Below are positions 10,656 through 63,912 of a DNA stretch of 64,000 nucleotides, piece after piece. The position numbers and the translations under genes were made by a program. How positions within the stretch are numbered: position 1 is the first letter of the stretch; each line of letters begins with the position of its first letter. The notes under the pieces were generated by a model. The model was not told the DNA's origin. It was given only the letters and a program-made list of their open reading frames with translations, and ran no database searches. The stretch is from Macrostomum lignano (lineage: Eukaryota): positions 256,312 to 320,311 of the forward strand of contig NIVC01001157.1 of NCBI GenBank assembly GCA_002269645.1, given 5' to 3'.

Positions 10656-10660
10656 GATTT

Positions 10661-14045: not shown

Positions 14046-14089
14046 TGCACGGCTGTCAGAGAGCTCTGTGCTGCTGCTACTGCTAAATC

Positions 14090-34689: not shown

Positions 34690-35649
34690 TCGTTAAATTG
34701 GTTGACACTTTCATATTGTTTATTCTTGAAAATAGATTATATTAACCCCCTAAACCACACATTTCTCATGGTTTTACTCACGAACTCTCGAAAATTGCAC
34801 TTTTTATAATATTTGAAAATCACAAAAAATCACTGTTTTCAGACCATTTTCACGTGTTTTTAGTCAATTTCACATATCTTTAGTGATTTTTAAATGAGTG
34901 AGGGCATGAAGCGAGGGAACGCTTCTTTTTTGAAAGTATAAAAATTCTGAAAAAATCTGTGTTTCGCATGCCCTCACCCTCAACACCCTCAATATATATA
35001 TATAAATATACTAAATATAATAAATATAAATATATATGTCGTATATATATAGCTCGTATGGATACAATATCTGTGAAAAAAATCTGTGTTTCGCATTCCC
35101 TCACCCTCAACACCCTGTATTGTATGTATATTGTATGTATATATTGTATGTATTGTATGTATATTGTATGTATATATATATATGTATATATTGTGAGGGT
35201 GTTGAGGGTGAGAGCATGCAAAACACAGATTTTTTCAGAATTTTTATACTTTCAAAAAAAGAAGCGTTCCCTCGCTTTCATGCCCTCACTCATTTAAAAA
35301 TCACTAAAGATATGTGAAATTGAGTTGCAGTACAATACAGTTGCAATATATATTTTTATTGTATTTATATTGTATTATATTTATTGTATTTATATTATAT
35401 TAGTATATTTGTATTGTTGATTATATTTATATATTTATATATTATTTATATATTTATATTCACATGTTGTGTATATTCACAACAATATATACAGTATATA
35501 TTCACACACACAATATTTATCCCCCCACCCACTTGCAACTGCGACTTCCTGGTAGTAGTAGCATGATGTAAGGGGATGAGTCATCTGCGAATGGAGCGAA
35601 CTGCGCCCGAGCGATCAATGTGGCTCCTCCCCTTACATCATGTACTACT
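34690..35649. repeat. Polinton-type terminal region ending ACTACT
   Basis: Block 34690-34870 is homologous to 40490-40690 and (inverted) to 47200-47400, which lies just inside an AGTAGT end; finishes with an AGTAGT...ACTACT hairpin at 35554-35649. Confidence 0.55.
34863..35323. repeat. Fold-back with ~130-bp inverted arms around an (AT/TATG)n spacer
   Basis: TCAATTTCACATATCTTTAGTGATTTTTAAATGAGTGAGGGCATG... vs ...CATGCCCTCACTCATTTAAAAATCACTAAAGATATGTGAAATTGA. Confidence 0.85.
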
Positions 35650-37491: not shown

Positions 37492-38235
37492 CTACCTTGT
37501 ACCAAGAATCATAGTCTTGGTCTTGGTTTTTGTGTGCATTATATTTAACAACTTTGAAACTCCTTCACAAGTGGGTGGTGGAACGTCGCTTTTTAGTGCC
37601 TTTTTATCGGATTCTTGGTTTTCCGTTTTATCCTGTGGCTTAATTAATCTATTTATCTCATCAAGAATTACATCTGGCATGTCTATTAAGCCTTCGGGCT
37701 TTATATGTTTGTATTCCTTAATTTTACCATTCACATAATAGAAACCTGGTGGAGCAAATACTAAAGCCGGAATATCAAAACCCACTCTTTGTTGAATTTT
37801 TTTTTATCTATCTACCTTGTTAAAGTAAAAGTGGTGACCCTTGTTTGTCTGAACAATCCAATCACAATGAGTCATACACAGTTCATTCAACTCAGGGCAT
37901 AGGTCAGCATCATCAATATCGATTACGGTTATATTTGAATTTCGAGTATCTATCCAAATCATGTTGTCTACCTCTGGTCGAAATGGTGGGGAGGTTGAAT
38001 TCCTATCTGCTTTGGTTGGCATTCCTGACGGTATTTTTTTCTTTGTTTTACTATTCCATGTTATACTGCAACTTCCGAATCTAAAATTAAGTTCTCCATA
38101 GAGATTAATTAGTTTATCGTACAATTTTGTTTGTTTTAAATTTCTCAACCTTGGTGGTGGGGCATCATGGTTTTGAAGGGGATCCTGTACGATCACAGGA
38201 GAGAAACTTAAATCGTTTTGATTTTTTCCTTCCAT
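37492..38235 (-). pseudogene. Prim-Pol (AEP superfamily) primase-like gene, frameshifted and truncated
   Basis: NITVIDIDD (DxD), VQTNKGHHFYF (TxxGxHxY), then GFDIPALVFAPP in the next frame. Confidence 0.62.
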
Positions 38236-38329
38236 TTTATTAAAAATAAATTTAACAATATAATTCATCAGTTGCAATGTACTTCTCAAGGGTTATGGGG
38301 AGTTTGAAAATGTTCAATTTCAGCATGAC

Positions 38330-39943: not shown

Positions 39944-40489
39944 TTCGTTTTTTCTTAGATGACAGCCTTATATAATAACTTATTTATGTATAGTGATAAA
40001 ACCATCTTTGCGCCAAAACTTATATATGCAAACGCGCACCAATCTACACTCATTCCGTTTTCACAAGTAATTTTTATTGGTTGGCAAAATATTGTCACTG
40101 GCAAAAATTTCATTCTGGCAAAAATTATAATTCTGCCAGTGTTTCTAAGAATAGACTTCCTAAAACCTGCTGAATCCTGTATAATCAAGGATTGTGTTAG
40201 ATTTTTTTTCATTGTGGCACTGAATGCGAGTGCTCGGGGTTGGTCAATCTGGCTATTTTGTATGGTAGATTACTACTGCCAGTGAAAAAAATATCATGTA
40301 ACATACTAGGGGTGAAAATGAATAATTCTAACACCCACAGGTTTAGAGAAGTGTGACTTACTGCGGAAGCTTTGGATTGTGCACTTATACGCAGTTAACT
40401 AGTTTTCGCTTGCCCATTGAATGGTTTAGAAAGAAATAATGGTTTACTGAAGGCCATTATATACATATATTAATTTACTAATTTACTAT

Positions 40490-40818
40490 CGTTAAATTGG
40501 ATGACACTTTCATATTGTATATACCTGAAATTGCATTGAATTGACCCGTGAATCCAACTTTTTTCATGGTTTTACTCTCGAAATCGTGAAAATTGCACTT
40601 TTTTTAATATTTGAAAATCACAAAAATCGCTGTTTTCAGACCATTTTTCCATATTTTTATTCATTTTCACTTATTTTTAGCGATTATCAAAATGAGTGAG
40701 GGCATGAGGGCGAGGGCACCCTCCTTTTTAAAAAGTATAAAAATTCTGAAAAATCTGTGTTCTGTGAAATATACCACAGGCCAATGCCCCCACATACCCC
40801 CACCCTCAACACCGTCAC

Positions 40819-40857: not shown

Positions 40858-41012
40858 ATAATATTTATATTTTTATACTTATCACACACACCTTGCAACA
40901 ATGACCTCCTGGTAGTAGTAGTGTTATATAAGGGGCTGAGTCATCCAGCGAGCTGGCGCGCAATGCGCCCGAGCAATAAGTGTGGCGCAGCCCCTTTTAT
41001 CATACTACTACT
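40490..41012. repeat. Second Polinton-type terminal region ending ACTACT
   Basis: Homologous to 34690-35649, includes an (AT)n tract and an AGTAGT...ACTACT hairpin at 40914-41012. Confidence 0.55.
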
Positions 41013-42146: not shown

Positions 42147-42869
42147 TCACACAGATAACTCACAGTAATCATCGAGAAGGCCCTGAAGTTCAGCCGCTGA
42201 TGGAGGTCTTGTTGGGGGAGTCGGATCTAGCCAATCTGCTGCATCCGATTGCCACAACCTTTCGCTCCGAATCGTCTTTGAGTTGTCATGCAGTAATGTA
42301 GCCGAAACAGAGCAAAAGCGGAGCCGCGGAAGCTCGGTCACCAGAGTATAGATGTTATGGCGGGATTGCACGTGGAAGTAACTCACGCTGAACAGTTCTG
42401 CCAAGCTTTTTAATGTCTGCTGATGCCTTGTAATAAATTGGTCATGCACTTTTCTAAGAAAAAATACTGCCACCCAAGTTCGCTGGTTGAATATTTGGTC
42501 CTGCTTAACCAGGTTTTCATGCAGTTCCGGCACCCCATTGTCAACAGGACCTCGGCGTGTGATGTCGTTGCAGATGGCTTCTAACTCCCCCTCACTAATA
42601 ACCTCTGCCTGAGCCGCTTGCTCGTTCTCATATTGAAGCGAACTTCGAAGTTTATGAAATACATCCGTGGCTCTCTCCTTTATCTTCCGTATTTTCATTT
42701 CTTCACTGACTCGCATATGCCTTTCTTCATCTTCAGATAATCTTGCCCAAAGTTCTCAAACCATGTCTTTAACGTTATCCTTATGCTCTTCAACAAAAAA
42801 TTGATCGATGAAATCGATAAAACCTGTCAGATCTTCCATGGTGATTCTGGCTGTAGTTGCATTAAACAT
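42147..42869 (-). pseudogene. Unnamed Polinton-associated family, paralogue 2 (one premature stop near 42760)
   Basis: ERATDVFHKLRSSL and IYTLVTELPRLRFCSVSATLLHDNSKTIR...DAADW match paralogue 1. Confidence 0.5.
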
Positions 42870-44330: not shown

Positions 44331-46920
44331 GGTCGAACTGTGTAGTGGCATCCGCTCGTTTGGCCGGGCTCGGATTGCGGCACTGATAGCCTCGCCCAGT
44401 TCTGTTCGGCTGAACAAGCGAGGCGGCGATGAAGCGGGTGATGGGTGGCAAAAACGCGGCGTCGGAGGCGTGGGCGGTGTCGGAAAGTCGTCTAAATTTA
44501 CGACAACCGACTGCGGCGGCGGCGACAATACTCCTAAATACTGAGCAGGAGGCGGTGAGTTCTGATGAGGCGGCGTGTGTAAGACGTCGATCCGTGGATC
44601 GAAAAGAGCTGGCGGGGCCGCGTTTGGCGAAGCCTGTGCGCCTGGGGCCATCAGCTCTTGAAGCGCTGGGAGCAACTCCTCGCTGGGCTCCTCTTGTAGA
44701 GAGCTCGACAGGCTGCTGATTAAGTCGAGCACATTCCCGGCCTTATTCAGGCGCTGCTGCACCGGTGAGCTGCGAGCCGGTGGCTCCGTGGGTGGCTGCG
44801 CTGGTGGGTAACCAGGCCGAACTGGCGAGGTTGCGGCCTCCGCGATTTGTCAGTAGTTGGTAGCCGGGTACCAGCAGCAATCACCTGCGGTGGGTCAAGC
44901 CGGGGCTTGATGGCGGCGGCTCGCTCTCTGGCGACCGCTAGGCGATCGCTAAGGTGAGGCGGCTGCAGCGGTGCTTGCATTTCGTTGTACCAGGTTGAGG
45001 CTTGAATACCACTGAGCTCCTTTCAGTTTGGCGAAGGTTTCTTGAAGGTGCGGGATCGGGTACGGGTGCTTCAGCGTCACATCGTTGATCGCTCTGAAGT
45101 CGTGCACAATTCGAATCGTCTTGTCCTTCTTTGGTACTAGGATCATCGGCGAATTGTAGCTGGAGTACGTTGGCCGTATGATGCCCTTCTTCAGCATATC
45201 ATCGAGCATCTGATCCAATTGCGGTCGTAGATGCGGAGGTATCCGGCGAGGAGGAATCGCGATTGGCGTCGAGTCTGTGAGCACTATCTCATGAGTTACC
45301 AGGTGTGTCAGTCCGTGGTCCACTGGAGTAGAAAGAATGCCTTCTCGCATTCCTTGAGTAAATCTTGAACCTGGTGCCTCTGGTGGCTGTTCAGCTGGTC
45401 TCCGATGTCGACCTCGTTGATCCAACTGTCAGTCGTTTCTTCAGCCGTTAGCAGTTGACGGACTTCTGGCTCATTCGACTCGCTGAAGTACTCGAGGTCC
45501 TGGGTCTTGAGTGGCGTAACTCCCATTAGCATGTTGCGACGCAAGTGAACCTCTGTATCTGATGGGTTAAGTACTTCCATCACTCCTCGACCTTCTGTCA
45601 TCGTATGCAGGACCGGGGCTGCGTCTAACTGGTGATGCTTCGCTTGCAGTCCTGATTTGAGTGGTTCGATAATCATCGGTGAACCGTAGTTCTGCTGATG
45701 ACCTTCGGCTAGTTTAATGGCGACGAGGCAGGAACATTGAGGCGGCAGAGTGCATTTTTCAGCGACGTACACTCGGCAGGCCTTCAGTTCTCTCCTTGAA
45801 TAGCGTACCGGAAGTCGGGTGCCTTGTCGAAATGTGAGCATTCCTTGCTGGAAGTCTAGTCCTTGGCAATGACTCCGCATGAAATCAATTCCTAAAAGAT
45901 TTTCACAGTCTCCTTTGGCGACGAAGAATTCGGTTTCCGCGACATAGTCCCAGAATTCAACTAATAGGATAACCTTGGCGGCGAGACTTAACTCGGTCCC
46001 GTCGTACATAGCGACTCAGTTAGGGTAAGCAGGTGCAACTATACAACGTGGTGGACGACGCCTAATGGCGGCCCAAGTGGACGCTCCGAGGAAGTTTCTT
46101 CTGCTTCCGCTGTCTAGCAGAAAAGCGACCTCTCGTCGAGCCACTCGTCCTGTAATAAATGGATCGGCGTCATGCGCATGGACTGTATTTACAAAGGAGG
46201 CGTTCACGAAACCTCCATCGACCGTTTCTTCGATTACTGACGACTCGGACGAGTCAGCTACCGCCGCTCCGGGGCCATACTCTTCCGGGTAGTGTTCGGG
46301 TAGTGTTCGGCTGTGGCTTGCTGTGCCAACGTGTTGAGTAGATGCTGCCGCTGCTGCATCATTGCAGATTGTTGCTCAACGACTTTTTCCAACTTCGAAA
46401 GGGCGCTGTTGTTGGGCTCCTTTGAGGCTTGTCCCTTCCCGTCCAACATTCTGACCGGGGGCTCGTTTGAACGATGAGCCAGGTCTTTGGCTAGTCCATC
46501 CTCTTCAGTGCTCGCAATGCTTCGCTGAGTGTCGTAGGTCGGATCCAGAAAAGTTTCTCGCGGCAGTCTGATTGAAGAGTTGATTCGGGAGGTGATCAGT
46601 CACCCGAAAACTCCCACTTCCAGACACTTAAGCCTGGGAACAAAATCAGTGATCACTTACTGTGGCGGGCTCTTCTTCTGTGTCGGGCAGGTTCTACGAG
46701 CTCCTTCCTTGTTTCTTCTTTGTTGCGCGCGTTTGTAGAGTTCGCTTCTTCCAATCTTCTTCTCCGGAGGAATCTTCTTGAAGTCTTCGAAGTCCAAAGT
46801 CGGCCGAGAGTGAGAGCAGAACAGTGAAGTTGACGTCGAAATATCTCCTTGAGTGCGGGATTCAGTACGTTTCTCGAGTGTCAAATCACTATCAACAGTG
46901 CGCCCTAATAAGCTCAAATT
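44330..46920 (-). mobile_element. Internally deleted Ty3/Gypsy retrotransposon (gag, protease, RT N-half, 3' region)
   Basis: Protease VAFLLDSGSRRNFL; RT THEIVLTDSTPIAIPPRRIPP...YNSPMILVPKKDKTIRIVHDFRAIND...HPYPIP; RT truncated at ~44990. Confidence 0.85.
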
Positions 46921-48378
46921 CTAACGCGAGGTCCTCCAAAGGGGGCGTCTTCTTCTAGATCTAACGGAATCGGAGTCGTGTGCTCCTATCGGTTAATCTA
47001 GGATAATCCAAATCAACAGTCAGTAATCCTCTAAGGGTATCGGAATCGTTCCGCAGATCCTATCCAATCCCTTAAGAAAATGGGAGGCCTCGAATAGTCT
47101 CAGTAAAGTCAACGGATCAGCAACGGCCGGCCGGCAATAAAATCGCTCTCAGTAGTATAGGAAAAGTAGGTTTGAGCGCAACCCATTTTGAAAAATCACA
47201 AAAAAACAGATAAAAATCGACTAAAAACAGGTGAAAATTGTCTGAAAACAGTGATTTTAGTGATTTCAAAACTTTTGAAAAATTGCTTTTTGCGCGATTT
47301 CGTGACTAAAACCACAAGAAAGTTGTGATTCGTGGGTTAAAATAACCTATTTTCAGGTTTAATCATTTCAAAACTAGCATCAAATTTAATAATAGTCATT
47401 TCTCCCATTGCATAACGCCCTTCAATAAGCCAATCTTACTAGCTTTGCTTTTAACGATCAGTCAGCTACCATCTATGCATAAAAATTGTCCACTCGAGGC
47501 AATACAATGCTTCTACAAAAGTCAATAATTTGCTCCACATTCGCTTTGTCCCGAGACTTTAAAATGGCTTTAATGCTGTTTTAGATTTTTACTTAAAGAT
47601 AATAGAAGACATTCAAGAACATGGAGTGCTTATTTAAATTTTTCGTGGCATGCATACTCGACTACTAGAGCACTAACCGCAGCACTCAACATTTCTATTG
47701 GCTGCCTAAATTTCTGCCAAAACCAAAATGTTTGCCAAAATTTCTGCCAAAAAGTGTTTGGTTTTGGCATCCAATAGGAGTGGCTCGTGCAAATCTTTTG
47801 TGTTCACCCTCTATCTAGCTGTAAAAAAGACATGAAGTGGGCCACGCAAGTTACAAACGAACAATGCTCGCAACCCTACCTACGGACGATTTCACTAACC
47901 CTTTTCTAAATTATGTATCTTAAAAATGGAACAAAAAGTATGAGAAATTCTCCTCAAAGCAATTGTTATATTGTGACTCAGCTTTAACGTCGTGCGAAAC
48001 CCACACTGAGTGGTCAAATAGTATGGTCAAATAGGCTCTCGCAGGAACTCTAACAATTGGTCAAGGACAGCTTCCATTACATAAAGTTAAATTTAATTCA
48101 CGTAAATCAAAATTGCTTTAATGAAAATTAATTATAAAAATTTAAAAAAGATAACAGCGGAGATACTATTTTTTCACTCCTTAAAATCCGTTCTTAGGTT
48201 ACACTTCGCATAACTTATGCAAATAATAATAATGGTTTTGTATTTTAAATATTAAAGTAGTGATTATTAAAACAGAAACAAAAAGTCCTCAAACGCCTAT
48301 GAAGAACAAAATTAAAACATTAGAGCAATTTATTAATATTGACAAATTAGTCCATGGTCACCACAAGTCATCAATCAT

Positions 48379-48912
48379 CTAGTTTTGGTTAGGTGATGAA
48401 GCAGCAGTGCCTCGGATGTCAGCAGTGCCTCGGTTGTCAGCAGTGCCACGGTTGTCAGCAGTGCCTCGGTTGTCAGCAGTGCCTCGGTTGTCAGCAGTGC
48501 CTCGGTTGTCAGCAGTGCCACGGTTGTCAGCAGTGCCTCGGTTGTCAGCAGTGCCTCGGTTGTCAGCAGTGCCTCGGTTGTCAGCAGCGATCTCATAGGG
48601 TGGTGGAAGGCTATCTTCTTCAGTATCCAAATCACCAATCGCTTGCATGGCTTGAGATTGGCTTTGATAGGATAGTGCAATAGCTTGCATGCTTTTTCTT
48701 TTTGACACATTTTCCTTCAGAAGCTTCAGGAGCTTATCCTCCTCCGTAAAGGACTTGAATGTATCTAAACCTTGTAGCTTATTGATTAGTCTCTCAGAAT
48801 CTAGATCTGCAAATATAGTTAATGGCATGAGCCTTCGAATCTTTTGCTTTGTGAGTTCGAATTCCTTTCGATGATCCCTATATCTCTTGCGAAGTTCATT
48901 TTCGGATGGCAT
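48379..48912 (-). CDS. Orphan protein (177 aa) with PPPY motif and (ADNRGT)x10 tail; copy in left arm
   Basis: Intact ORF, 18-bp in-frame repeat GCTGACAACCG(A/T)GGCACT; identical protein at 59028-59561. Confidence 0.55.
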   Translation of the reverse strand: MPSENELRKRYRDHRKEFELTKQKIRRLMPLTIFADLDSERLINKLQGLDTFKSFTEEDKLLKLLKENVSKRKSMQAIALSYQSQSQAMQAIGDLDTEEDSLPPPYEIAADNRGTADNRGTADNRGTADNRGTADNRGTADNRGTADNRGTADNRGTADNRGTADIRGTAASSPNQN

Positions 48913-49720
48913 GTCTATTAAAGCTTTTTATTGTTGCAATGAATTTGGAGAGAATTATCAGCCATCTTTCCAAATTCATTCCTGTATTAATATTATGTTA
49001 AAATACAAAAGCAGCGCATAAACTCAATTCTCATTGGTGCCTCATTGATGACAACCAATGAGAAAGCGACACCGGGTGAATGGAATGCAACTTTGCAGGC
49101 TCATGCCAGATGCAGAAAAAATTCTATCCACATGAGTCAGAATTGTAGTTACTTGAGATGCATGGCATTTTTTTCTGCATTTCTTCATTTCTAAGGCATT
49201 TTCTAGAAATAATGGTTTATTGAAGGCCATTTTTATAAAAAATAAATTTAAGTAATCTACATTTAAGTGTCCTATGAAAGGAGGTAGATTTCTCTTTTAC
49301 TAAGTTGGATGTGGCGCTTATCATATCAAAAGTTTCAAAAAGACCCTCTCCATTGTACAAGTCTAGTGGCTCACCTATCTTGCGTGAATCTATATTTAGT
49401 AACAAAAAACACAAAAGACTTTCAGACACAAAAGACCTCTCGTGAGCACAAAAGAGGCTAGTTTATTTGAACTGCACAAAATGTCTGCCAAAAAGTTTTT
49501 AATTTTAGCATCCAATAAAAATGACTCAGGCAAGTCGCTAGAAAATGTACCACGTCAGATAGAATAGATAGGTATTAATGAATGATAATGTCTCCTTAGC
49601 ATCCACCCCAAAAACAGATACTGCAGTTTTCAAATTTGAGGTTGCTGCCAATTATGCTCACATCTGTCTCATTTAACAAATAGCTCACAGCACCCACCCC
49701 AAAAACAGATACTGCAGTTT

Positions 49721-50227
49721 TCAAATTTGAGGTTGCTGCAACAACTCATCCGCTGCCTCTTCATCCAGCTTCTTCATGACTTCCGGCAGATGTTGTATGC
49801 ACGACCGAATCTGATACAGTGATAGCGTGCAGACATGTAGGCGTGGATGTGCCTGTGCCAAACTCGCAAGCTTCATTAGAAAGTTGATCCACGCATTGCT
49901 GAAGCGGGTGGATTTCTTTAGTTCCTTGAACTGATTCTTCGAGAGATGACGCTTCATATTGTTGTAAATTGCTCCTGCTTGGATGCCATACTTGACTCCA
50001 TAGTTATTAAGACGCTTCAGCTTGTTGAATATCTGGATAAGTTGATCCTTTACAACATGAATAGTAAATCTACCAGTACAGAATTCTTCATTCGATGGAT
50101 CCCGAGCATCCACAGGTTCGCACGATGTGCGGAAAATCTTCTTCAGTTCCTCGATTCGAGCTTCTTTTTCATTAGAGGTTTTAGGTAGGCTATCCGTGAT
50201 AGTGGATAAAGGAAACCGTACTCTTGC
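49721..50227 (-). pseudogene. 5'-truncated copy of the 223-aa ORF at 57548-58219
   Basis: Arm boundary at 50227 removes the first ~55 codons. Confidence 0.75.
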
Positions 50228-50596
50228 TAAACCTAATTAAACCTAAATATTTATTTGAATATTTTAATATATTTTTACTTTTTGAGTTAGTAGTACTAGG
50301 TTTATCGTTTATGTCTATTTAATACTATTGAAATTCCCTAAGTTTATTAATTTATTTAGTATGTTTAATTTATCTAATCTAGTTAAAGCCTTGATAAATC
50401 ATCTTATAATTTTTATTGGGCTTTTATTTTATTCTTTATTTATATCTAGACTTAGTCCTATTCTATATTGTTTTATCATCAAGTATTTTAATGCTATTAG
50501 CCATTAATCATATTAATGCTTGTAACCAAATTAAATAAATGCTATTTTATTTTTTCAGCTAATTATTGGTCACTTCATTTCTAACCTTTCTTTAAA

Positions 50597-52569
50597 ATGG
50601 AAGAAGAGTTTTTTGATGCTTTGGCCACTTTCAATTGTTTGAATGATCTTGATGAGCATAATGTACCATGCCATGAAGAAAGTTTGTCAAGTGCTAATAT
50701 TGGCCCAAGTCAAAATGAAGAGCATTATCTAGTGGCCCATGATGTGCATGAACTAGGCATAAGTGATGAATCAACTAGTCTGGATAGACAAGGAGCAGCA
50801 CCGTGCTTTCTGCAATTGCCTAATGTATTGCAACTTGAGAGTAGTGTCCATCTGACAATGTGCATGGCAATAATGTACATTATTGCTAATCTTGGCTTGA
50901 CAGAATTAAGCATTGATTCTATATTACAAGTCCTAGCTGCTGGTAATTTGCTAACCCAGCCTTTAACATTAAGGCGAGTTAAGTCTATTGTACGCAAAGC
51001 TCTGAAACCAGAGATGTGGATCTCCATGAAGGAAGTTTGCACCAATGCTAGTTGTTCTAAATTGTTTCCTTCTGAAAAATGCTGTGGAACCATGACAAGT
51101 AAAAATGCTTATCTTGACTTCAAATTTCAACTACATCTGATTCTAGAACAGCACTTTCAAACAATCTTGGATTACTCAACAAGTAAAGAAATGAAGACTG
51201 ATATTCTAAAAGATGTTCCTAAAAGTATGGAACCTCTTATGATTTATTTTCATTTCTCAACAGATGGAGCAAAACTCTATTCATATTCATCGCAATCTAT
51301 TTGGCCCGTGCAAGCACCAATTTTGAATCTGCCCCCAGCATTACGGTCAAAGGTGGAGAACACAATCATGTTAGCTGTGTTCATTGGTGGACAAAAGCCT
51401 AAGTGGTCCGAATTCCTTGATGAATATCTGGCAAAAATTGGTTTTAGCCAGATGCACAAATTTTTAATTCACAACTGTATTGTTCCTGTCAAGTTTGAAA
51501 TTTTCGCAGCAGTTTTTGATTTGCAATGGCAAGTGTAATCAACCATAAAAGCTACACTGGTCAATTTGGATCTCTTTTTTGTGATGCTTCTGGTCATGGA
51601 GTTAAAGTTGGCAAAGGTCATTCTATGAAGTTTCCAGTCTTGGGAAATTTTGTCACCAATTCAATTTATAAGCAACGTCTTCAAGCAATTGTACAATCTG
51701 GCTGCAAATCATCACTTTTTGGTATTAAAGGTGTATCAATACTTTTTAGAGTTCTGTAGGATTCCTGAAAATGTGTTGATTGATTCACTTCATCTCTTGT
51801 ATGAAAACTGTACAAAAACAATTTTGAAGTATCAATTTGAAACTCAGAACTGGCAAAAGTCATTTTACCTTGGTCGAAGTCATGAGCCTATTAATAAACT
51901 ACTGCATAGTGCAATTGTGCCTGCATATTTAACTTTTCCTCACAATATTGAGGAGCGTGCTTTTTGGAAAGCTCGAGACTACAAATTTATTGCAATTAAT
52001 TTTTTCCAGTTTTGGCTCTTAACCTTAAGCAAAGAGACAAGCATGATCATGCTAATTCTCTGCTGCTTTTTTCTATTATTTGTCGAGTTTCAAATCATGT
52101 TGATGCCTCTTCTTATTCTTATCAGTTGGATAAAATAATACACTTTTTCCTATCAACTATTGGAAATGTTTTTGATAGTAACATTTATGCTATGAATTTT
52201 CATCTTCTTTTTCACATTTTTCCACAGATTAAAAAGTTTGGGCCATTAGGAAGGTGTTCTATGTTTTCATTTGAAAACAATTTTCTATCAATTAAAAAGT
52301 TTTGTCGAGGCACACGCTACCATCTGAAGCAGACTTGTGAAAAAACTATTTTAACTAAAATGTGTTCTTTGGTTGTTTCAAAATCAAATTTTGCTGGTAA
52401 AGAAAAACTTTTATCATTGCTTGACTTTCCAAGAAGTTGTGGTGGTACCAAGCAAATAGCATTTATTTCAAGCAAGTGTATTAGCATTGATGGTCATAAA
52501 ATGTATGCATTTAGTCCTAGTTCAAACAAGTCATGCTACTACTTTTTTTCACAATCATTCATTTGGTAA
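50597..52569 (+). pseudogene. CACTA/EnSpm-like transposase, frameshifted
   Basis: FSTDGAKLY...SQSIWPVQAPILNLPPALR...ENTIML...GGQKP; AVFDL...VINHKSYTGQFG..FC; IDSLHLLYEN; EERAFWKARDY; GPLGRCSMFSFEN. Confidence 0.78.
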
Positions 52570-53591
52570 GGTTTTGAATTTTTTAACAATGATTCAGTTG
52601 ATGCTCTTGTTCAACTGTATGATCCTATTGATGAGCCATTTTTCAATTTCCAGCATATTGATGAATCTGTTGCCAATGCCATTGATTTCTTTGTAAATAG
52701 TTTTTTTTTTCATAGGTAAGCCATCAACAACTGAATGCATGTATCCTGTTTCGGAAATAAAATGTTCCTGTGTCGCCTATGTGAATCCCCAGTCAACACT
52801 TTTACTAGTTGATGACTTAGTGCCAGACTATGGGTGAAACCATTTTATTTCACTATTTAATTAAACACATTAGCATCGTTTTTGGTTGCCTAAACTTGAC
52901 TATTTTAAAACTGCAAAGTAAGGCTAATTCTGCACTAACTCTATATCAGTTTTGTGAATTTAAAAATAATCTGGCTTCACTTTTGGTGCTCCAGTTGGTT
53001 ATAATTTTTTTGAACAATGTCCAAAAGCATTTTCTAACATTCTTTGCAACTGAAACTGTTTCAAACTCCTTTAAATGCTACCATAATTTTTTAAATTAAA
53101 TTTGCTATATTGTACAACCATTCATGAAAGCAATTGTTAATAAAGTGGATGCATATGGTAATAACTTGTGTTTACAAGTTGCCTCTACTTTTTTCTCCAT
53201 GTTTTCTTTTTAAGGAGATTAGATAGAGTGAAGTATGTCAAATTAAAATTACTCACTATTAAGGATGTGCAAACATAAATGAGCGCCCTCCCCCTTTCGC
53301 AGAGACTAGAAAAAAATCTAGAGGGGGCTAGCAAATTTTTGCCAAAATACAGAGCCACATCCTCCACCTCACTCCTGGGTCCACCACCCCCTTGAAAAAT
53401 TTGTGGTAGTGCTACTGGTTATATATTTCTTAAATAATAAATATTTTTTAATTTGTGCATATCAAATATATATGATAATCGAAATAATGAAATGTAACTT
53501 ATTTTGATTCTACTACACTTTATATTAAATGTAAATGTTTAAGACAGGTTAATTATATTTTTTTTTCAACCAAAATTTCATTTCAGCTGCA

Positions 53592-54795
53592 ATGAACCGG
53601 TTGCGAAGAGCTCCTAGGGAAATTGGTGATGCATTTTCCAGCGCCACATTCAACCATTTGCTACTATGGTTTAGCAAAACCAATCGCCATAGCGGTGCAA
53701 TGTATATTAACTCTGCTCCATTTCGGCATCTCTCTTCTTCTGAGAAGTCCAGGCTCCGAGAGGGACAAACTATCAAGATCCGCGACAGCGAAGGTTATCA
53801 CGAGGCCATTATCCTTAAGCTAGGCAGCTACAATGATATAAAAAAAGCTGAAGAACGCGTTGAAGAGTATGCTGAGTCAGGAATGGCTACAGACGCCATT
53901 ATTGAGACATTGGGTAATGACAATGAGGTGGAAAGTGAGAGCAGCGATGCTGACAGAATCGACAGCGATGACGAGGTTAATGACGAGACTTACGTACCGG
54001 CGCCCCCCCAAGGACAGAACTGAGCTGACAGCTGGCATTCATGAAAGAAGCGCAGCAACAGCGGTTGCTGCGACAGAGTGTCGTGAGCCGTCTGTGCACA
54101 AAGCTATGGCTGCTGAAATTGAGAAAGAGCAACATCTGCTTGCTAATTTTTCAAAAAGACCTCACCTCGAGGAGCACTCGTTACGTCATTTGCAATCTAG
54201 AAGTTCTGGGCCTATCTCAACGCCTCCCTGTGAAAATGAAAACACTTCAAGAAAGGCATCATCTTCTAGTGTCATAACACCAAATGCCACTAAAGAAACA
54301 CCAAAAAGGCAGTCCACAGCCGAGATCAATCAGCAGGCCACATCTTCAACACAACTTCTTCTGCTAGAAGCGCGTGTTCAAACAAGCATTTTAAAGCAAA
54401 TTCTCAACAAGACGGAAGAAAACAGTTTATTAATAAGAGACATTCTAGCCCCACGCGAGAAACTGGAGCGTGTCGATAAAATTTTTATCAGCCACGATGG
54501 TTCCAACTTCAGGCTATCGCAGCTACCGTCTCAACCTACGACTTTTGCACGTGACTTCGTTTTAAAAAAGTATGGCAAAGACTATTGCAAACAGGCTATT
54601 GTCGAGCCTAAGTCCAAATCCGAGCGTGTTGTCATGTGTCCTGAAGACGTCCAGGAAATAAAGGACCTTCTTTCCAACTGGTTCGAGTCATTCAGTTGGA
54701 GCGCTGTTCGCTCGTCTCTCAACCAGATGTTTAGAGATATGACAACTAAAGCTAAAAAAGCTGGCTCATCCGATCAGGATCCAGTCAAGGACTAG
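53592..54795 (+). pseudogene. Transposon accessory protein with a C-terminal BEN-like domain (frameshift in a C run at ~54003-54010)
   Basis: TFARDFVLKKYG...EPKSKSERVVMCPEDVQEIK...WSAVRSSLNQMFRD resembles BEN domains; acidic linker; candidate splice acceptor ATTTCAG at ~53581-53587. Confidence 0.5.
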
Positions 54796-56526
54796 CAGAA
54801 ATATGTTGGGAAGCATGCCAAGCTAACGCGTAAAGTTTTTAGTGAATTGAACATTTCTCTCAACAAAACATTAACATAGTAAATTTAAATCAAACGCAAT
54901 TTATTTAAGCTATTTTTTCTACTTTTTTGGCTATAAGAAAGTATAAAAATTGTATTGTTTGATTTTTTCAATTGTTTTTATTAAATATAATTATTTTGTT
55001 TCTTTTTGTCTGATTTTGTCTGCTCCCAGTTAAATACTACTCGTATTACAATAGCCATTTCGTTACATCCACCTATACTAAACGTCTTATTATACTATTA
55101 TTATTGTTATGGTAGCTAAAACTCCCGCTAAAAATTCTGCTGCTTCTTTGTTTGATTCGACTTGCCAGATTCAGCGCTGCTTTCAGAAACCAAAGAAGCA
55201 GCACAAAAAACTTTAGGGAAAATTCTTGGTGCGTCGTCTTTGTCTGCTTTCTGCGCTGATTCCGCACAATTTAAGTGGACTTCAGTAGCTTATTATTCGG
55301 TTACTTCTTTTACATTTTCGAGATATGGCTGCTATGGGCTGACTCCAGCCAAATTAGTTGCGGCAAAGACGTAAACGAATTTTTAGCGGGCTATTATACT
55401 GTACTTTAAATGGCATCATTATATTTATAATTGTAATAAATAAATTTATTCAATCTTTTCTTGCGCCAACAAACAACTACATTCATTTTAACCAAATGTC
55501 TTAATCTGAAGTTTTTATGGTCAATTTTGACAATAACTTTTTAGGTAAAGCTAAACTTTGGTACATACTCGTATATTTAAATAAACATGAATAATTTTAA
55601 CTTTTTTAGTTTAATTTATCTTCATGTGACGAATAAAGCGGAAGACTTTGTGTAGCGGATAATTGGGATTAATCTACGATCCAGCAGATCAGCAGCCGAT
55701 TTTATCCTTAGCGTGAATTTGCAGATTTAGTATATTTGGATCGGTACTTAATTTGATGCGCCTAGCAAGGGCCGGTCAGGATTCAGTTGATTGGTGGGTG
55801 GGCTGAGGCAGGCGGTAGAGGGTTAAGGTAAAGAGGCCAGACAGCTAAGGGACCCGCAAGCTTAGAGCGAGAAGCGAAGCGACGAAGCAAAAGGAGAGAG
55901 CGGCCGCTGACTGCAAGTGTATTTTATAATTGGTGAGTAAACAAGATAACAACAAGCTTAATCCAAAAACCAGACAAACCCCACTCAGGCGAAATGTACA
56001 TGTACAAATTAATCGATAAATATATCATACAAGAATAACATACGTCAGTACATGTACATAGGTAGGACTACTTTACGATAAATAATAACGATATGAATGA
56101 AATACAAATAATAGAATAAATACATAAGAGGCTACAAAAAACAAAGCAACTAACAGTAAAAATAGCGCGATAATAATACGTACGAATATTGTTAAAATAA
56201 ATGAAAGAATACGGTATGCATATGAAAATACAGAAATACGATACACGCGATTCTACGAATCACACTGTCACATTCATATTGACATTGTTCGTTATAAAGT
56301 AAAAATTGCATGCTGGATGAGATTTATAACAGTTTTAGTTATTATTTTCTTTATCCTTCCCTAGATCGATATGTGAGACGCCATACTATTTGTGTATAAA
56401 TAGCAAACGAAAAGGCGCTGATTGAATATCAATCATTTTTTAATAAAATGCAGTTTGAATTGCTTAAAATGAAGGCAGGTGAAGAATTGGGCACACAATT
56501 TTTACAAACCGGGGCTATGCTTCAAA

Positions 56527-56700
56527 AATAAATTGTAATTTGATTACAACTTCAATTGAAGAAAATACAAGAAAATTGTTTCACTTGTAAAAATTGCAAT
56601 TGTTCTGTTTGCTGCACAAATAAATTGTAATTTAATTACAACTTCAATTAAAGAAAATACAAGAAAATTGTTTTACTTGTGAAAATTGCAATTCAGAACA
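56527..56700. repeat. ~92-bp tandem duplication in AT-rich DNA
   Basis: AAATAAATTGTAATTT(G/A)ATTACAACTTCAATT(G/A)AAGAAAATACAAGAAAATTGTTT twice. Confidence 0.8.
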
Positions 56701-57547
56701 AAGTCTCACAATATAAAAAAATTGAAATTTAAGTATAATTTTCGGCAATTTAATATAAAAAAATTGCACAATTTTCGCAATTTGGCATGGCAATTTTTCG
56801 CAATTTTTTTATTTTTTGGGCGCCAAATGTACTTAAGATGCATGGCATCGCACTGCACAATGCACACTGAAAGAAACTATGTTCCCTTTTTATTCAAATC
56901 ACAAATGACTCAACATTCTTTCTAGCTTTTTTGCATCAAGAATGAAGCAAAGCAACTTACATGTACCTAACCCTAACAGTTTACCAGTTGAGTCAATAAG
57001 TTTTGAATATCAGCATGCTGCAGCAGGAATTGAGCACTTCTTAAACCCCAACTCTATTGTTCATTTTTCACAGAGAAAGGCAGCAACTCAACTAGCTCAA
57101 ATCTTTATAAATTTAAAAAAAGCGTAAACTGACTCACGTGCAGGGGCTGTAGAAGAAAAGCTAGCCGTGTGATTCAGAAGTATACGAGCTAGTTTGCTGA
57201 GAAGCTGAGCATCACACACTACACAGGTGATAGTCAAAGCAGAATGACACACTGTTGTCTGTAGCTTAAGAAGTAATTTGCAGTTTCCGCTAGCTTGCAA
57301 AATCTTGCTGCAGCAGGAATTGTACGCCCACCCTGCCCCAACTCAATTGTATCGTGTTTAAGTAAAATTGAAAATCTGGCAGAGCATCAAGACAGCTGGC
57401 TTTTTTTCTAAAATTTTAAAATCCATTGCCACTCAGCGACATTCTGCTTTAAGCTCAGAATTTACGAGTATCTGGTAAGTAAATTCAACCATCACCTACA
57501 TAACATATATAATATACTCGTAGAACGGATAATATAGACTTTCTCTT

Positions 57548-58219
57548 TTGACAATCCTCTTAGCGCCAACTCGGATACTAAAAATGGAAAACCAAATGGA
57601 AGTTGACAACGCGGACGAGTACTGCAAGAGTTTAGAGCACCTGCTGGAGTCAATTTTCAAGAGCGACGACTTGAGCAACTGGAAGGTGTGGGTTGGCAAT
57701 TACAACGCTATTGCAAGAGTACGGTTTCCTTTATCCACTATCACGGATAGCCTACCTAAAACCTCTAATGAAAAAGAAGCTCGAATCGAGGAACTGAAGA
57801 AGATTTTCCGCACCTCGTGCGAACCTGTGGATGCTCGGGATCCATCGAATGAAGAATTCTGTACTGGTAGATTTACTATTCATGTTGTAAAGGATCAACT
57901 TATCCAGATATTCAACAAGCTGAAGCGTCTTAATAACTATGGAGTCAAGTATGGCATCCAAGCAGGAGCAATTTACAACAATATGAAGCGTCATCTCTCG
58001 AAGAATCAGTTCAAGGAACTAAAGAAATCCACCCGCTTCAGCAATGCGTGGATCAACTTTCTAATGAAGCTTGCGAGTTTGGCACAGGCACATCCACGCC
58101 TACATGGCTGCACGCTATCACTGTATCAGATTCGGTCGTGCATACAACATCTGCCGGAAGTCATGAAGAAGCTGGATGAAGAGGCAGCGGATGAGTTGTT
58201 GCAGCAACCTCAAATTTGA
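57548..58219 (+). CDS. Unnamed Polinton-associated family, paralogue 3 (intact; likely ATG at ~57584)
   Basis: AAAAATGG start; LASLAQAHPRLHGCTLSLYQI motif. Confidence 0.55.
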   Translation: MTILLAPTRILKMENQMEVDNADEYCKSLEHLLESIFKSDDLSNWKVWVGNYNAIARVRFPLSTITDSLPKTSNEKEARIEELKKIFRTSCEPVDARDPSNEEFCTGRFTIHVVKDQLIQIFNKLKRLNNYGVKYGIQAGAIYNNMKRHLSKNQFKELKKSTRFSNAWINFLMKLASLAQAHPRLHGCTLSLYQIRSCIQHLPEVMKKLDEEAADELLQQPQI

Positions 58220-60799
58220 AAACTGCAGTATCTGTTTTTGGGGTGGGTGCTGTGAGCTATTTGTTAAATGAGACAGATGTGAGCATAATTGGCAGCAACC
58301 TCAAATTTGAAAACTGCAGTATCTGTTTTTGGGGTGGATGCTAAGGAGACATTATCATTCATTAATACCTATCTATTCTATCTGACGTGGTACATTTTCT
58401 AGCGACTTGCCTGAGTCATTTTTATTGGATGCTAAAATTAAAAACTTTTTGGCAGACATTTTGTGCAGTTCAAATAAACTAGCCTCTTTTGTGCTCACGA
58501 GAGGTCTTTTGTGTCTGAAAGTCTTTTGTGTTTTTTGTTACTAAATATAGATTCACGCAAGATAGGTGAGCCACTAGACTTGTACAATGGAGAGGGTCTT
58601 TTTGAAACTTTTGATATGATAAGCGCCACATCCAACTTAGTAAAAGAGAAATCTACCTCCTTTCATAGGACACTTAAATGTAGATTACTTAAATTTATTT
58701 TTTATAAAAATGGCCTTCAATAAACCATTATTTCTAGAAAATGCCTTAGAAATGAAGAAATGCAGAAAAAAATGCCATGCATCTCAAGTAACTACAATTC
58801 TGACTCATGTGGATAGAATTTTTTCTGCATCTGGCATGAGCCTGCAAAGTTGCATTCCATTCACCCGGTGTCGCTTTCTCATTGGTTGTCATCAATGAGG
58901 CACCAATGAGAATTGAGTTTATGCGCTGCTTTTGTATTTTAACATAATATTAATACAGGAATGAATTTGGAAAGATGGCTGATAATTCTCTCCAAATTCA
59001 TTGCAACAATAAAAAGCTTTAATAGACATGCCATCCGAAAATGAACTTCGCAAGAGATATAGGGATCATCGAAAGGAATTCGAACTCACAAAGCAAAAGA
59101 TTCGAAGGCTCATGCCATTAACTATATTTGCAGATCTAGATTCTGAGAGACTAATCAATAAGCTACAAGGTTTAGATACATTCAAGTCCTTTACGGAGGA
59201 GGATAAGCTCCTGAAGCTTCTGAAGGAAAATGTGTCAAAAAGAAAAAGCATGCAAGCTATTGCACTATCCTATCAAAGCCAATCTCAAGCCATGCAAGCG
59301 ATTGGTGATTTGGATACTGAAGAAGATAGCCTTCCACCACCCTATGAGATCGCTGCTGACAACCGAGGCACTGCTGACAACCGAGGCACTGCTGACAACC
59401 GAGGCACTGCTGACAACCGTGGCACTGCTGACAACCGAGGCACTGCTGACAACCGAGGCACTGCTGACAACCGAGGCACTGCTGACAACCGTGGCACTGC
59501 TGACAACCGAGGCACTGCTGACATCCGAGGCACTGCTGCTTCATCACCTAACCAAAACTAGATGATTGATGACTTGTGGTGACCATGGACTAATTTGTCA
59601 ATATTAATAAATTGCTCTAATGTTTTAATTTTGTTCTTCATAGGCGTTTGAGGACTTTTTGTTTCTGTTTTAATAATCACTACTTTAATATTTAAAATAC
59701 AAAACCATTATTATTATTTGCATAAGTTATGCGAAGTGTAACCTAAGAACGGATTTTAAGGAGTGAAAAAATAGTATCTCCGCTGTTATCTTTTTTAAAT
59801 TTTTATAATTAATTTTCATTAAAGCAATTTTGATTTACGTGAATTAAATTTAACTTTATGTAATGGAAGCTGTCCTTGACCAATTGTTAGAGTTCCTGCG
59901 AGAGCCTATTTGACCATACTATTTGACCACTCAGTGTGGGTTTCGCACGACGTTAAAGCTGAGTCACAATATAACAATTGCTTTGAGGAGAATTTCTCAT
60001 ACTTTTTGTTCCATTTTTAAGATACATAATTTAGAAAAGGGTTAGTGAAATCGTCCGTAGGTAGGGTTGCGAGCATTGTTCGTTTGTAACTTGCGTGGCC
60101 CACTTCATGTCTTTTTTACAGCTAGATAGAGGGTGAACACAAAAGATTTGCACGAGCCACTCCTATTGGATGCCAAAACCAAAAACTTTTTGGCAGAAAT
60201 TTTGGCAAACATTTTGGTTTTGGCAGAAATTTAGGCAGCCAATAGAAATGTTGAGTGCTGCGGTTAGTGCTCTAGTAGTCGAGTATGCATGCCACGAAAA
60301 ATTTAAATAAGCACTCCATGTTCTTGAATGTCTTCTATTATCTTTAAGTAAAAATCTAAAACAGCATTAAAGCCATTTTAAAGTCTCGGGACAAAGCGAA
60401 TGTGGAGCAAATTATTGACTTTTGTAGAAGCATTGTATTGCCTCGAGTGGACAATTTTTATGCATAGATGGTAGCTGACTGATCGTTAAAAGCAAAGCTA
60501 GTAAGATTGGCTTATTGAAGGGCGTTATGCAATGGGAGAAATGACTATTATTAAATTTGATGCTAGTTTTGAAATGATTAAACCTGAAAATAGGTTATTT
60601 TAACCCACGAATCACAACTTTCTTGTGGTTTTAGTCACGAAATCGCGCAAAAAGCAATTTTTCAAAAGTTTTGAAATCACTAAAATCACTGTTTTCAGAC
60701 AATTTTCACCTGTTTTTAGTCGATTTTTATCTGTTTTTTTGTGATTTTTCAAATTGGGTTGCGCTCAAACCTACTTTTCCTATACTACTGAGAGCGATT
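57713..60799. repeat. Right arm of the 3,087-bp inverted duplication
   Basis: Reverse complement of 47141-50227; ACTACT at 60784-60789. Confidence 0.95.
59028..59561 (+). CDS. Orphan protein (177 aa) with PPPY and (ADNRGT)x10; copy in right arm
   Basis: Identical translation to 48379-48912. Confidence 0.55.
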   Translation: MPSENELRKRYRDHRKEFELTKQKIRRLMPLTIFADLDSERLINKLQGLDTFKSFTEEDKLLKLLKENVSKRKSMQAIALSYQSQSQAMQAIGDLDTEEDSLPPPYEIAADNRGTADNRGTADNRGTADNRGTADNRGTADNRGTADNRGTADNRGTADNRGTADIRGTAASSPNQN

Positions 60800-61175
60800 A
60801 ATCAAAATAACGAAGACTTGAACAACACTTCACAATTGATACGCTTCTCTCCCAGAGATATAGCCTCGATTTGTTGCTCTAACTAACCACAAGATCTTTT
60901 GAGGCTGCTCCGAGTCTGAGGTTTCAGCTCGGATTTTACGCTTGTGTTTATAGTCGAATTTTTGGTAAATACTCGTACTTAGTAGCGCGACTCATATTTC
61001 ATCATATTTCATCAGATTTCATCTTATTTCATCATATTTCACCATAGTTGCAACATATTTCACCATAGTTGCAGCTTGTCTCATGCTTCGTCGTACGTTG
61101 TATTCACGGTCTTAAAATAGAGTATGACAATTTTGCAATTTTTATAACATTTAAGTTTTTCGCTTTTTTATGTTA

Positions 61176-62415
61176 CTACTTAGAGTAGTTTACTTTGTAT
61201 CGTATTTGGAGATCTCTACATGATGACGTGCGATTCCCGCGCAGAAACTGGTCGATCAGTTCTTGCTCTAGATGGTGAGGCTCGAGCCAAGGGAAGGCTT
61301 GTTTTCCTAGCTCCTGCAGAGCATCTGTGTAATCTTCAGTTGACTCGTTCTTGCGCTGGCTGCGGCCTCTGAATTCTTCTCGATACTCGTCAGGTCCTGA
61401 GAGTCGTGCAAATCTCTCTATTAGTCGTTGCTGAAGCTGTCGATAGGTGATGCAGTTGGGCAGCTTCATGCGAAGTACCGCGGCGTAGGCCGAATTTAAG
61501 TCTAAATTTATTGAGGGAAGGTGACTCATTTGCGTTTTGAAATTTTGACCTCTCGAAAATTGAATAGAATACAATAGGTTTTGCGCATCAATACCATATT
61601 TAGAACTCATCAGTCCATAATTTTGACAGGCTAGTGATAGTTTTGCACGTTAAAGCGTGCAATGGCAATGCTATGCTAGAATAGTTTTTAATGTACTTTT
61701 TATAGTATTGGGCCAGGCCTAGAAAACTGCGCAACTGAGATGATGTGCGACGCACTGGCCAATCGCGGATAGCGGCGAGCTTCGCCTCATCCGTCTTGAC
61801 ACCTTCGGGAGTTAGCTTATGTCCTAAGTAAGCCAACTCAGCTGAGAATAGCGCAAATTTCTTCGCTTTCAGCTTCAATTTCGCGTCAATTACGCGTTGC
61901 AGCACTATTTCTAAGTGGGCAAGATGCTGCTCAAAGGTCACTGAATGAACTAGGATGTCATTCATATACCCGAGCGCTATATGGGCTTTAATCCTTCTAG
62001 GAGCAAATTAATGGTCCTTTGGAATGAGCCGGGCGAATCAGTCAAGCCCATTGGTAACACATTAAAGCAAAATTGGCCACGATTAATCATTGAGAAGGCT
62101 GTTCTATGCTAATCTTCCTGTCTAAGCGGTATTTGAAAGAAACATTGCGCTAAGTCTAGGCAAGAATAGAAATTCGAGCCCTTTAAGCAAGCAAAGGTAT
62201 CTTGAATCTTAGGCAGAGGATAGACGTGCCTTAAACATTTCTTATTCAACTCGCGATAATCTAACACTAATCTAACTGTTCCATTCTTTTTAGGTACTAA
62301 CAGCACTGGCGAGTTGTAACTGGAGTATGCTGGCCTAATGATGTTCTTTGCCAACATCTCGTCTATTACGCCATCGAGCTTTTCCTGCAAATGCGGCGGC
62401 ACGCTGCGCGGCGCA
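61176..62415 (-). mobile_element. Rearranged Ty3/Gypsy fragments (RT N-half, RT core/thumb, then gag segment)
   Basis: YNSPVLLVPKKNGTVRLVLDYRELN...YPLPKI...LDLAQCFFQIPL; YMNDILV...LAYLGH...LRSFLGLAQYYKKYI; gag FRGRSQRKNESTEDYTDALQELGKQAF...LIDQFLRG. Confidence 0.85.
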
Positions 62416-62760
62416 AGGGTCCAGTGAGCGCACAAGGGGAGGAGTGCGTTTAACTAGACTAGCGTACAATGAGCGATTGTACGCGGCAGGCCAGGCAACA
62501 ACAGTACAGGCAAGCGCCAAATATGGCGGCTTCCACTAACTAACCTTTAGCTAGAAAACTTCCTAATTTCCTATGTTAATGAGCCTCATTATGACGACTC
62601 GATTGCGCCATCTTGTGCAACTGACTAGCGCCAATTAAGGCTGCCAATAGCACAAAGAGGCTGCAGAACAGTTTCTGTTCCAGATGCTAGCAGCGGACAG
62701 CAATGCCTAAGATGTGACTGCCCTATGCTTGCAGCAGAAGGCTGCGACCACATCAGAAGT
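62415..62760. repeat. Fourth copy of the unclassified repeat family
   Basis: Matches ~22515-22770 and 21345-21590. Confidence 0.75.
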
Positions 62761-62940: not shown

Positions 62941-63912
62941 CTTCGGGTGTGTCATAAGTAATTTCACTGCAGGCTTCTGTCTAAAATATGTAGGCACATG
63001 GACTTGTGGGTAGTTTAGCTGCAAAGTATACTTAGTGAAGCAATAGCAGTGCATTTGAGACGTGCATAGGTTGTTTATGGCCCAAGCTATCGCAAGAATA
63101 CGCCAAGCAGATTTAGCAAGTGCAACGCGATGAAAAATCGTCTATGCAGCGAACAAAAATCACCATGAATCTTGACATGACGCCTGCACCAAGTAGATCC
63201 GCAAGGTAATCAGCAGGCGGAGCTTGAATGACGTCCTAAACTGCCTGGTTGCTGAGGATGAAAGCTGGCTCCACCTGGATTGCAAGGGCAGCAAGGCAGA
63301 CAATCGCTGCTGGCTGGGAGCTGGGGACTCCAGGGCGACTGTGACCAGGAAGTCCATCTTGGACAAGAAGACCATGCTGCTGGTAGCCTTCACGCCAAAC
63401 GAACGAGTCTCTATCTGCACAACTCCACCGAACACCAAGGTCGATGGCCAGTATTTTATCGACTTTGTCCGGCACACTGGAGACCTCTGGCGCACTCTCC
63501 GGTCAAATCCATGTCACCTGGACGAGGTTCTGCGGCAGATGGACACCGCACGGCCGCACACCTGTAAGGCTTTTTCGAATTTTCTGCTTGCACGGCGAAT
63601 GAATCTGCTCTGACAGAGTCTATACAGCCCGGACTTCAAACTTGTGCAAGAGACTTCTGTTCAAATGGCTGAAGGCTGACTTTTCCAAGAAGAGTTTCGC
63701 AACCATGAAGAGGTCAAACAGGCTGCGTTGCACTGGCTATGGCACTTGGAGGAAAAAACACCTGTAGGCTGAGGTGGACAAGCTGTATGAGCACTGCCAG
63801 ATGGTGATGATATTGGGGGACTCTATGTTGTTGAGTGGTACAGTTTTGTTCATCTGCGATTGCAAGTTCGTCTGTTTTCACATCAGTGACATTACTTATG
63901 ACACACCCGAAG
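62941..63912 (+). mobile_element. Internally deleted mariner/Tc1 element (972 bp)
   Basis: 29-bp TIRs CTTCGGGTGTGTCATAAGTAAT(T/G)TCACTG, TA on both sides; remnant AEDESW...MDTARPH...YSPDF. Confidence 0.9.

Follow-up and report, generated by a model that had tools for sequence, protein, structure and literature searches.

A 13.7-kb unit with inverted Polinton-end arms in Macrostomum lignano, probably a one-off inverted duplication within mobile-element relics

We analyzed a 13,659-bp unit at positions 47141..60799 of a 64,000-nucleotide stretch of Macrostomum lignano DNA (contig NIVC01001157.1 of GenBank assembly GCA_002269645.1, forward-strand positions 256,312 to 320,311; the whole stretch is hereafter called the window), in which two near-identical inverted arms carrying the end of a Polinton enclose a CACTA-like transposase relic. 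The unit is best explained as a recent, one-off inversion with inverted duplication of one breakpoint region within nested mobile-element relics, a reading to which we assign a probability of roughly 0.55. When its fold-back variant is taken together with it, a one-off inverted duplication of either kind becomes clearly probable. A first-pass annotation made from the letters alone had instead proposed a composite element, generated by copy-back from the Polinton end and having two competent ends able to carry cargo. The outcome that the annotation itself had set against this proposal, a one-off local inversion without other copies, fits the observations best, with contig depth serving only as a rough guide, and the locus is most likely inert.

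Structure of the unit and depth of its parts

Self-comparison of the window aligned positions 47141-50227 with the reverse complement of 57713-60799; across 3,087 bp the two arms differ by 4 substitutions and no indel (99.87% identity, BLAST E=0), leaving an interior of 7,485 bp. Because the arms differ at only four sites in 3 kb, the pair appears to be young and the duplication recent. An AGTAGT at 47151 and an ACTACT at 60784-60789 each lie 10 bp inward from the unit boundary, and the outermost 10 bp (47141-47150 and 60790-60799) are inverted rather than direct copies. The first-pass annotation had described the near-identical 3.1-kb arms and this placement accurately, and its statement that no integrase-type target-site duplication (TSD) is present was borne out by a direct-repeat test. 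No direct repeat of more than 2 bp was found within 3 bp of the AGTAGT ends, where integrase insertion of Polintons/Mavericks leaves a TSD of 5-8 bp (10.1101/2023.08.22.554363), and none of more than 3 bp was found at the outer ends of the unit. At the outer ends, a TAA match of 3 bp was considered as a TSD and rejected, being within chance for the offsets tried. The same test, applied as a positive control to a Polinton relic at 1199-12694 of the window, yielded its 6-bp TSD, CACCAC. Measured from AGTAGT, the arms are 3,077 bp long, outside the range of 100-1,500 bp given for Polinton terminal inverted repeats (TIRs) in the same source.

Short-read contigs from 4 of 17 runs (X2, X3, X9 and X10), belonging to 4 studies, were compared with the window over 45000-57760, a region that ends before the right flank; the rows listed, on which the following statements draw, comprise 40 of 398 differences, 15 of 23 joints, 24 of 443 loose ends and 32 of 3,097 pieces. 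AGTAGT is a Polinton terminal motif of the AG type. Contig pieces of the arm family, diverged by a few percent, have 47151 as their precise first base in both X2 (depth 1210) and X9 (depth 164), depths that amount to some 5 to 7 times those of the interior in these runs, and the first 30 bases from 47151 are identical at 16/30 and 18/30 positions to the AGTAGT starts of the TSD-flanked Polinton at 1199-12694. Because family contigs start exactly at this base and the terminus resembles that of the Polinton at 1199, the arms are, on sequence grounds, a Polinton-type end, present as a fragment; on this point the earlier identification stands. None of the eight Polinton-remnant queries from the window (8/8) matched any of the 177 open reading frames (ORFs) of the unit, and no remnant of a polymerase B, integrase or capsid gene was found in the unit by these queries or by a Pfam scan of 8 unit ORFs. 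Capsid, protease and packaging genes likewise had no match in the unit, the two arm proteins being without an assigned family, and the terminal motif had 0 matches in metagenome contigs.

The interior was covered in X9 by one 5,419-bp contig spanning 50237-55653 with 0 substitutions at a depth of 21.9, and interior depths were 21-42 in X10 and 188-257 in X2 (one AT-rich piece at 51); X3 barely covered the interior and supports no inference. The lowest reference-allele depths of the left flank were 23-24 in X9 (3 of 11 non-zero rows), 21-32 in X10 (3 of 16) and 165-256 in X2 (4 of 12), the remaining left-flank rows being deeper, as expected for alleles common to other copies. For the arm reference allele, depths of 52.6 in X9 (4 of 11 rows, the others zero) and 40-60 in X10 (8 of 11 rows) were recorded. 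These values roughly show that each locus has one interior and about two arms. A block of about single-locus depth is accordingly bracketed by two inverted copies of the same breakpoint region, the arrangement expected of an inversion with duplication. As a rough guide, interior depth in X2, X9 and X10 did not point to any additional composites of at least 90% identity. The inner junction of the right arm was observed directly as the joint 50227/57712 in X2, so that the inner neighbour of this arm is present in reads.

Proposed rearrangement and alternatives

We propose that the prior order was an LTR-like (long terminal repeat-like) repeat, a Polinton-family end fragment of about 4 kb ending at the present position 56836, and a broken CACTA-like relic. 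A 10.6-kb block, which took in 10 bp from the LTR-like repeat together with the Polinton fragment and the relic, would have been flipped while its first 3,087 bp were also retained in place, by staggered breaks or template switching at a broken fork followed by end joining. The left copy would have kept its old outer neighbour and lost the 5' end of the gene, and the right copy would have kept its old inner neighbour and gained a new flank. Within this scheme we infer the ownership of the 10 bp, the order of events and the repair pathway. Of the two ancestral neighbours, the inner one of the right arm is seen in reads and the outer one of the left arm comes from a single X10 contig.

This contig contains a variant of the LTR-like repeat and, from 47129 onward, reads across the 10 bp for 23 letters or more, reaching 47151 or beyond; because it crosses them, it links the 10 bp with the left flank, provided that the contig is not an allele of this locus, and 47141-47150 probably belongs to the left LTR-like repeat. 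The repeat reached a depth of 61,623 in X2 at 46704-47129, and retroelement-like ORFs were recognized by eye at 44949-46599. The minus strand of 46609-46629, at the edge of the high-copy repeat, contains what we take to be a tRNA-Leu-like primer-binding site, and because of this stretch the interpretation of 46630-47151 as an LTR is supported. The A at 47151 could serve at once as the final base of the LTR and as the initial A of AGTAGT. The flank motifs had no match within the available part of the 6 LTR families (of 137) listed in the supplement of PMC12801592.

Several observations weigh against the inversion with duplication. Contig depth is a rough guide that gives no copy number, the arm reference allele was seen in X2 at 0 of 11 rows, and neither the left inner junction 50227/50228 nor either outer junction appeared among the rows listed. 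At 49833, the right-arm letter alone was read in all four runs. The X2 contig over 57712/57713 reaches into the arm by over 48 letters, and this counts against the present reading because the branch to the left inner junction should stop it, unless the contig derives from another family copy or from a sample without the left arm. The X10 contig discussed above could be an allele of this locus, and the duplicated region of 3.1 kb exceeds the 1.9-kb maximum in PMC1885836. A clean, loss-free inversion is not demonstrated, because words shared between the right flank and the relic were no more frequent than in shuffles: the right flank as the flipped left end of the CACTA-like relic was rejected as a candidate (5 shared 9-mers against 5.4 expected; 277/500 shuffles).

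Fold-back repair would leave a near-identical picture that differs from the inversion with duplication in the ownership of the 10 bp. In this account, which we regard as unlikely, the right arm and its flank are original, and the CACTA-like relic broke, whereupon the broken end folded back and copied the Polinton fragment, overran its end by 10 bp and rejoined in the LTR-like repeat, making the left arm wholly derived through a one-off chromosomal event. The right arm does hold the whole gene and the native inner context, its letter alone is read at 49833, a single-copy spacer lies between inverted copies as in PMC3907307, break-primed fold-back has been demonstrated in yeast (PMC10622511), and the inverted duplication within the Polinton at 1199-12694 has the same shape; however, one X10 contig links the 10 bp to the left repeat, no short inverted sequence was identified at the spacer edge, and a loop of 7.5 kb would presumably be long for priming. 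A local mis-assembly, by which a near-identical family copy was joined to the wrong end of a single-copy relic or two haplotypes were merged, is improbable. It would explain why the left inner junction is absent from the rows listed, why the X2 contig crosses 57712/57713 without the expected break and why the left-arm letter at 49833 was never read, in a genome described as redundant and difficult to assemble (PMC5730564). Against it stand the depth of the arm allele at about twice that of the interior in X9 and X10, the contigs in two runs that start at 50237 beside the junction and the 4 substitutions with 0 indels between the arms, and the 9-bp repeat and the 10-bp overrun would resemble repair scars rather than overlap errors.

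The inverted repeats of CACTA/EnSpm elements have CAC/CCC as their terminal motifs. Alternative transposition, in which an attack by a CACTA-like end on the adjacent Polinton fragment during replication produced an inverted duplication, would place a DNA-transposon relic directly at the inner junction, as is found, and a CCC...GGG miniature inverted-repeat transposable element (MITE) shows that such ends occur here. Nevertheless we hold it to be quite improbable, since the start at 50228 is neither CAC nor CCC, the duplication is young and yet the transposase at this locus is broken, and no CAC/CCC terminal pair was found around the relic: none of the 37 inverted 14-mer pairs with at least 12/14 matches between 50228-50600 and 54796-56860 starts with CAC or CCC, and the best pairs that do so reach only 9-10/14. 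Inverted duplications from events of this kind are described in maize (10.1101/2020.01.07.897926).

In the established model, copying primed by a terminal protein starts at the terminal base. A mobile composite, for which a Polinton end would have primed copy-back and two working ends would carry cargo by means of the enzymes of an intact Polinton, has in its favour that the two AGTAGT ends are near-identical, neither of them damaged, and that the family is multi-copy; we nevertheless find it very improbable. Because 10 bp beyond the terminus are included in the duplicated DNA, the duplication would not have begun at the Polinton terminus, and the end-initiated copy-back proposed at first is not supported. 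Nor is the cargo-carrying composite with competent ends, given the lack of a TSD, an interior of about single-locus depth with broken genes, and the lack of an integrase or polymerase remnant. The other inverted duplication in the window also has no terminus. It lies inside the Polinton at 1199-12694, where 8035-9435 and 10661-12070 form a 1.4-kb internal inverted duplication that stops 268 bp before the right TIR of the element and contains no AGTAGT, so it cannot be counted as a second fold-back of a Polinton end, as had been suggested. Similar inverted duplications recur locally at three sizes, 13-19 bp in the arms, 1.4 kb in this Polinton and 3.1 kb in the unit.

Genes, interior and surrounding elements

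The coordinates of the features are collected in Table 1. The annotation had assigned two genes to each arm, the second of 223 aa being truncated on the left and whole on the right; both genes and their states were confirmed, and the length was revised, the second gene encoding 211 aa from ATG and 223 aa only if started at TTG. Two paralogues of the 211-aa protein were found in the window, at 14978-15319 (E=1e-6) and 42150-42755 (E=0.005), the best reversed decoy having an E-value of 0.58. Together with 57584-58219, these appear as three members of one helical protein family, all in Polinton-like DNA. An exhaustive search gave 10 relatives of the 211-aa protein in the 50% library, of which the repetitive P0006 was dropped from alignments as doubtful. 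A word-index search gave 0 homologous sequences among 87 candidates, and 0 of 134 pattern matches in viral contigs were confirmed as relatives. The family had no Pfam family, fold searches with a structure model (predicted local distance difference test, pLDDT, 75.5) gave no clear match, and Atlas matches were weak. Named relatives of two unit proteins were Macrostomum lignano proteins only, with 43% and 48% identity. No Rfam match was found across 46000-62500.

An older junction lies within both arms. Other family copies in X2 and X3 join 49155 directly to 56836, and loose contig ends lie at 49190; because the copies make this joint, the block of the 211-aa gene is flipped here relative to them, between inverted copies of 13-19 bp. 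At the left inner junction, the 9-bp repeat may represent templated filler, or it may belong to a short repeat that also occurs at other places.

Table 1. Features of the unit and its flanks (positions in the window)
Feature	Position	Strand	Description	Basis
LTR-like repeat, left flank	46630..47140	-	very high-copy, head of Gypsy relic; left limit approximate	
Left arm	47141..50227	-	inverted copy of an end fragment of the Polinton family, with 10 bp of flanking DNA	self-comparison
10 bp outside the element	47141..47150	+	mirror at 60790-60799; probably end of left LTR-like repeat	one X10 contig
AGTAGT terminus	47151..47156	+	multi-copy family; mirror at 60784-60789	contig starts and similarity to ends of Polinton 1199-12694
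Subterminal stretch	47181..47396	+	73-75% like 34686-34899 and 40485-40697, near other AGTAGT...ACTACT hairpin ends	
177-aa ORF with 6-residue repeat	48379..48912	-	18-bp x10.3 minisatellite at 48402-48587; identical copy at 59028-59561 (+)	
Older junction, within both arms	49150..49189	+	19-bp stretch (1 mismatch) recurs at 56830-56849, then short repeated filler-like DNA	
211-aa gene, 5'-truncated copy	49721..50227	-	codons 44-211; first 43 codons gone	
9-bp repeat, left inner junction	50228..50236	+	recurs at 50238-50246	contigs start at 50237 in X2 and X9
CACTA/EnSpm-like transposase relic	50597..52569	+	four reading-frame pieces; breaks near 51520, 51750 and 52000	
BEN-like gene	53592..54795	+	two reading frames; break near 54010	
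MITE-like insert, 267 bp	55124..55390	.	14-bp CCC...GGG inverted ends; 2-bp CT repeat on either side	
High-copy insertion, 652 bp	55621..56272	.	5 shared letters at joint	missing in one X2 contig
Polinton-end family DNA	56836..57712	+	multi-copy; upstream of 211-aa gene	
211-aa gene, whole	57584..58219	+	small helical protein family; M. lignano homologue PAA54076	
Right arm	57713..60799	+	inner side continuous with family DNA	self-comparison; joint 50227/57712 in run X2
AT-rich right flank	60800..61235	.	followed by second Gypsy relic	

In the interior, the unrelated transposase and the BEN-like gene reported in the annotation were both found again, with two corrections: both are frame-broken, and 56836-57712 is Polinton-family DNA. 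The transposase relic gave Pfam matches in the expected order, all below the cut-off (Transposase_21, E=0.006; DUF1258, E=9e-4; DUF4218, E=3e-4), and 0 of 1,538 candidates were homologous to its first piece in a word-index search. Both frames of the BEN-like gene match one M. lignano protein, named BEN domain-containing in UniRef; no direct Pfam BEN match was found in 53592-54795, and the structure model of the BEN part was poor (pLDDT 57), leaving the fold search uninformative. The frame breaks are considered real because X10 contigs spanning all four of them, in the transposase and the BEN-like gene, show no gaps. The last 0.9 kb of the interior is family DNA and not cargo, because 56928-57760 has about four times the interior depth and 56836 is joined to arm DNA in other copies. 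The supposed cargo is thus a dead relic, which probably lay next to the family DNA before the duplication. The 267-bp MITE-like piece and the 652-bp repeat are later insertions into this relic. Between the two interior genes, a short G+C-richer insert at about 53280-53420 lies in a bin of about four times the interior depth.

The window consists of nested mariner, hAT, Gypsy and Polinton relics. The Polinton relic at 1199-12694 is 11.5 kb long with 355-bp TIRs and AGTAGT ends, each TIR containing an inner inverted copy of its own first 80 bp, and it includes an integrase remnant (foamy-virus integrase, E=4e-4) and a weak match to adenovirus protein X. In its 1.4-kb duplication, a 347-codon frame is whole at left and represented by its 3' part at right, and similarity to a second copy of a PC4-like gene, at 14085-14790, stops just where the junction lies, at 10660. 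Two 96-bp AGTAGT...ACTACT hairpins after TA-rich runs (35554-35649 and 40914-41009) are probably the ends of further Polinton-like relics, and an imperfect palindrome of 460 bp was found at 34864-35323. A Prim-Pol-like remnant (37804-38292; E=0.004, below the cut-off) lies in a Polinton-like relic with arm-like subterminal DNA. Open transposase frames of mariner (16960-18021, 353 aa) and hAT (24825-27083, 752 aa) type were also present, as was a 972-bp mariner-like relic with matching ends at 62941-63912.

Comparison with known systems and significance

In Drosophila, 17 of 29 inversions have inverted breakpoint duplications (PMC1885836). As in those of the Drosophila melanogaster group, inverted breakpoint copies here bracket a single-copy inverted block, with a gene that is complete in one copy and truncated in its counterpart; the present unit differs in that a mobile-element end is involved, in its size (3.1 kb against at most 1.9 kb) and in being known from the inverted state alone. 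Fold-back inverted duplications (PMC3907307, PMC10622511) also have near-identical inverted copies, a spacer of normal copy number and an origin in break repair, whereas here no inverted microhomology was found at the spacer edge and the scale is small and interstitial. At the Caenorhabditis elegans eri-6/7 locus (10.1101/2024.01.15.575659), Polinton remnants and TIRs similarly flank inverted segments, with several Polinton insertions, but the inversion there is attributed to recombination between separate insertions and affects a host gene; in the unit, a single duplicated fragment with its flank forms the repeats, and nothing but dead transposon DNA lies between them. With Polintons/Mavericks (10.1101/2023.08.22.554363, PMC6431247) the unit shares the AG-type terminus, subterminal DNA and one gene family; unlike them, it has no detected polymerase, integrase or capsid gene and no 5-8-bp TSD, and its arms are twice the TIR range. 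Composite insertions of maize Ac (10.1101/2020.01.07.897926) resemble it as transposon inverted duplications that could yield double-stranded RNA, and differ in that the junction here has no transposon terminus or TSD. In sum, the unit behaves like the known inversion-duplications, built of Polinton DNA, and lacks the TSD, the TIR length and the core genes of a Polinton. Cargo-carrying Mavericks occur in nematodes. A partial literature search found no report that describes Polintons of Macrostomum, and none that describes Polinton composites with mirrored arms.

The locus appears as a clear case of a known rearrangement class in transposon debris. Mirror-image Polinton ends alone define no element, and it is the TSD, the flank and the interior copy number that decide. 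It is improbable, in our estimate, that the locus represents the birth stage of palindromic non-autonomous Polinton satellites, in which break repair mirrors one end around foreign DNA. If it did, an intact Polinton could later copy out the unit and insert it with a TSD, or the unit could become a hairpin-RNA silencer of its family, and the presence of three such breakpoint duplications, all inverted and all in Polinton DNA, in a window of 64 kb would mark a recurring route. In maize, inverted duplications of transposons are known to silence the families from which they derive (10.1101/2020.01.07.897926). Should units of this kind be found moved with a TSD, they would provide a route for Polintons to gain long arms and cargo; if the unit is transcribed through, hairpin RNA against the family could form, and if small RNAs are made from it, the unit could act as a natural Polinton silencer.

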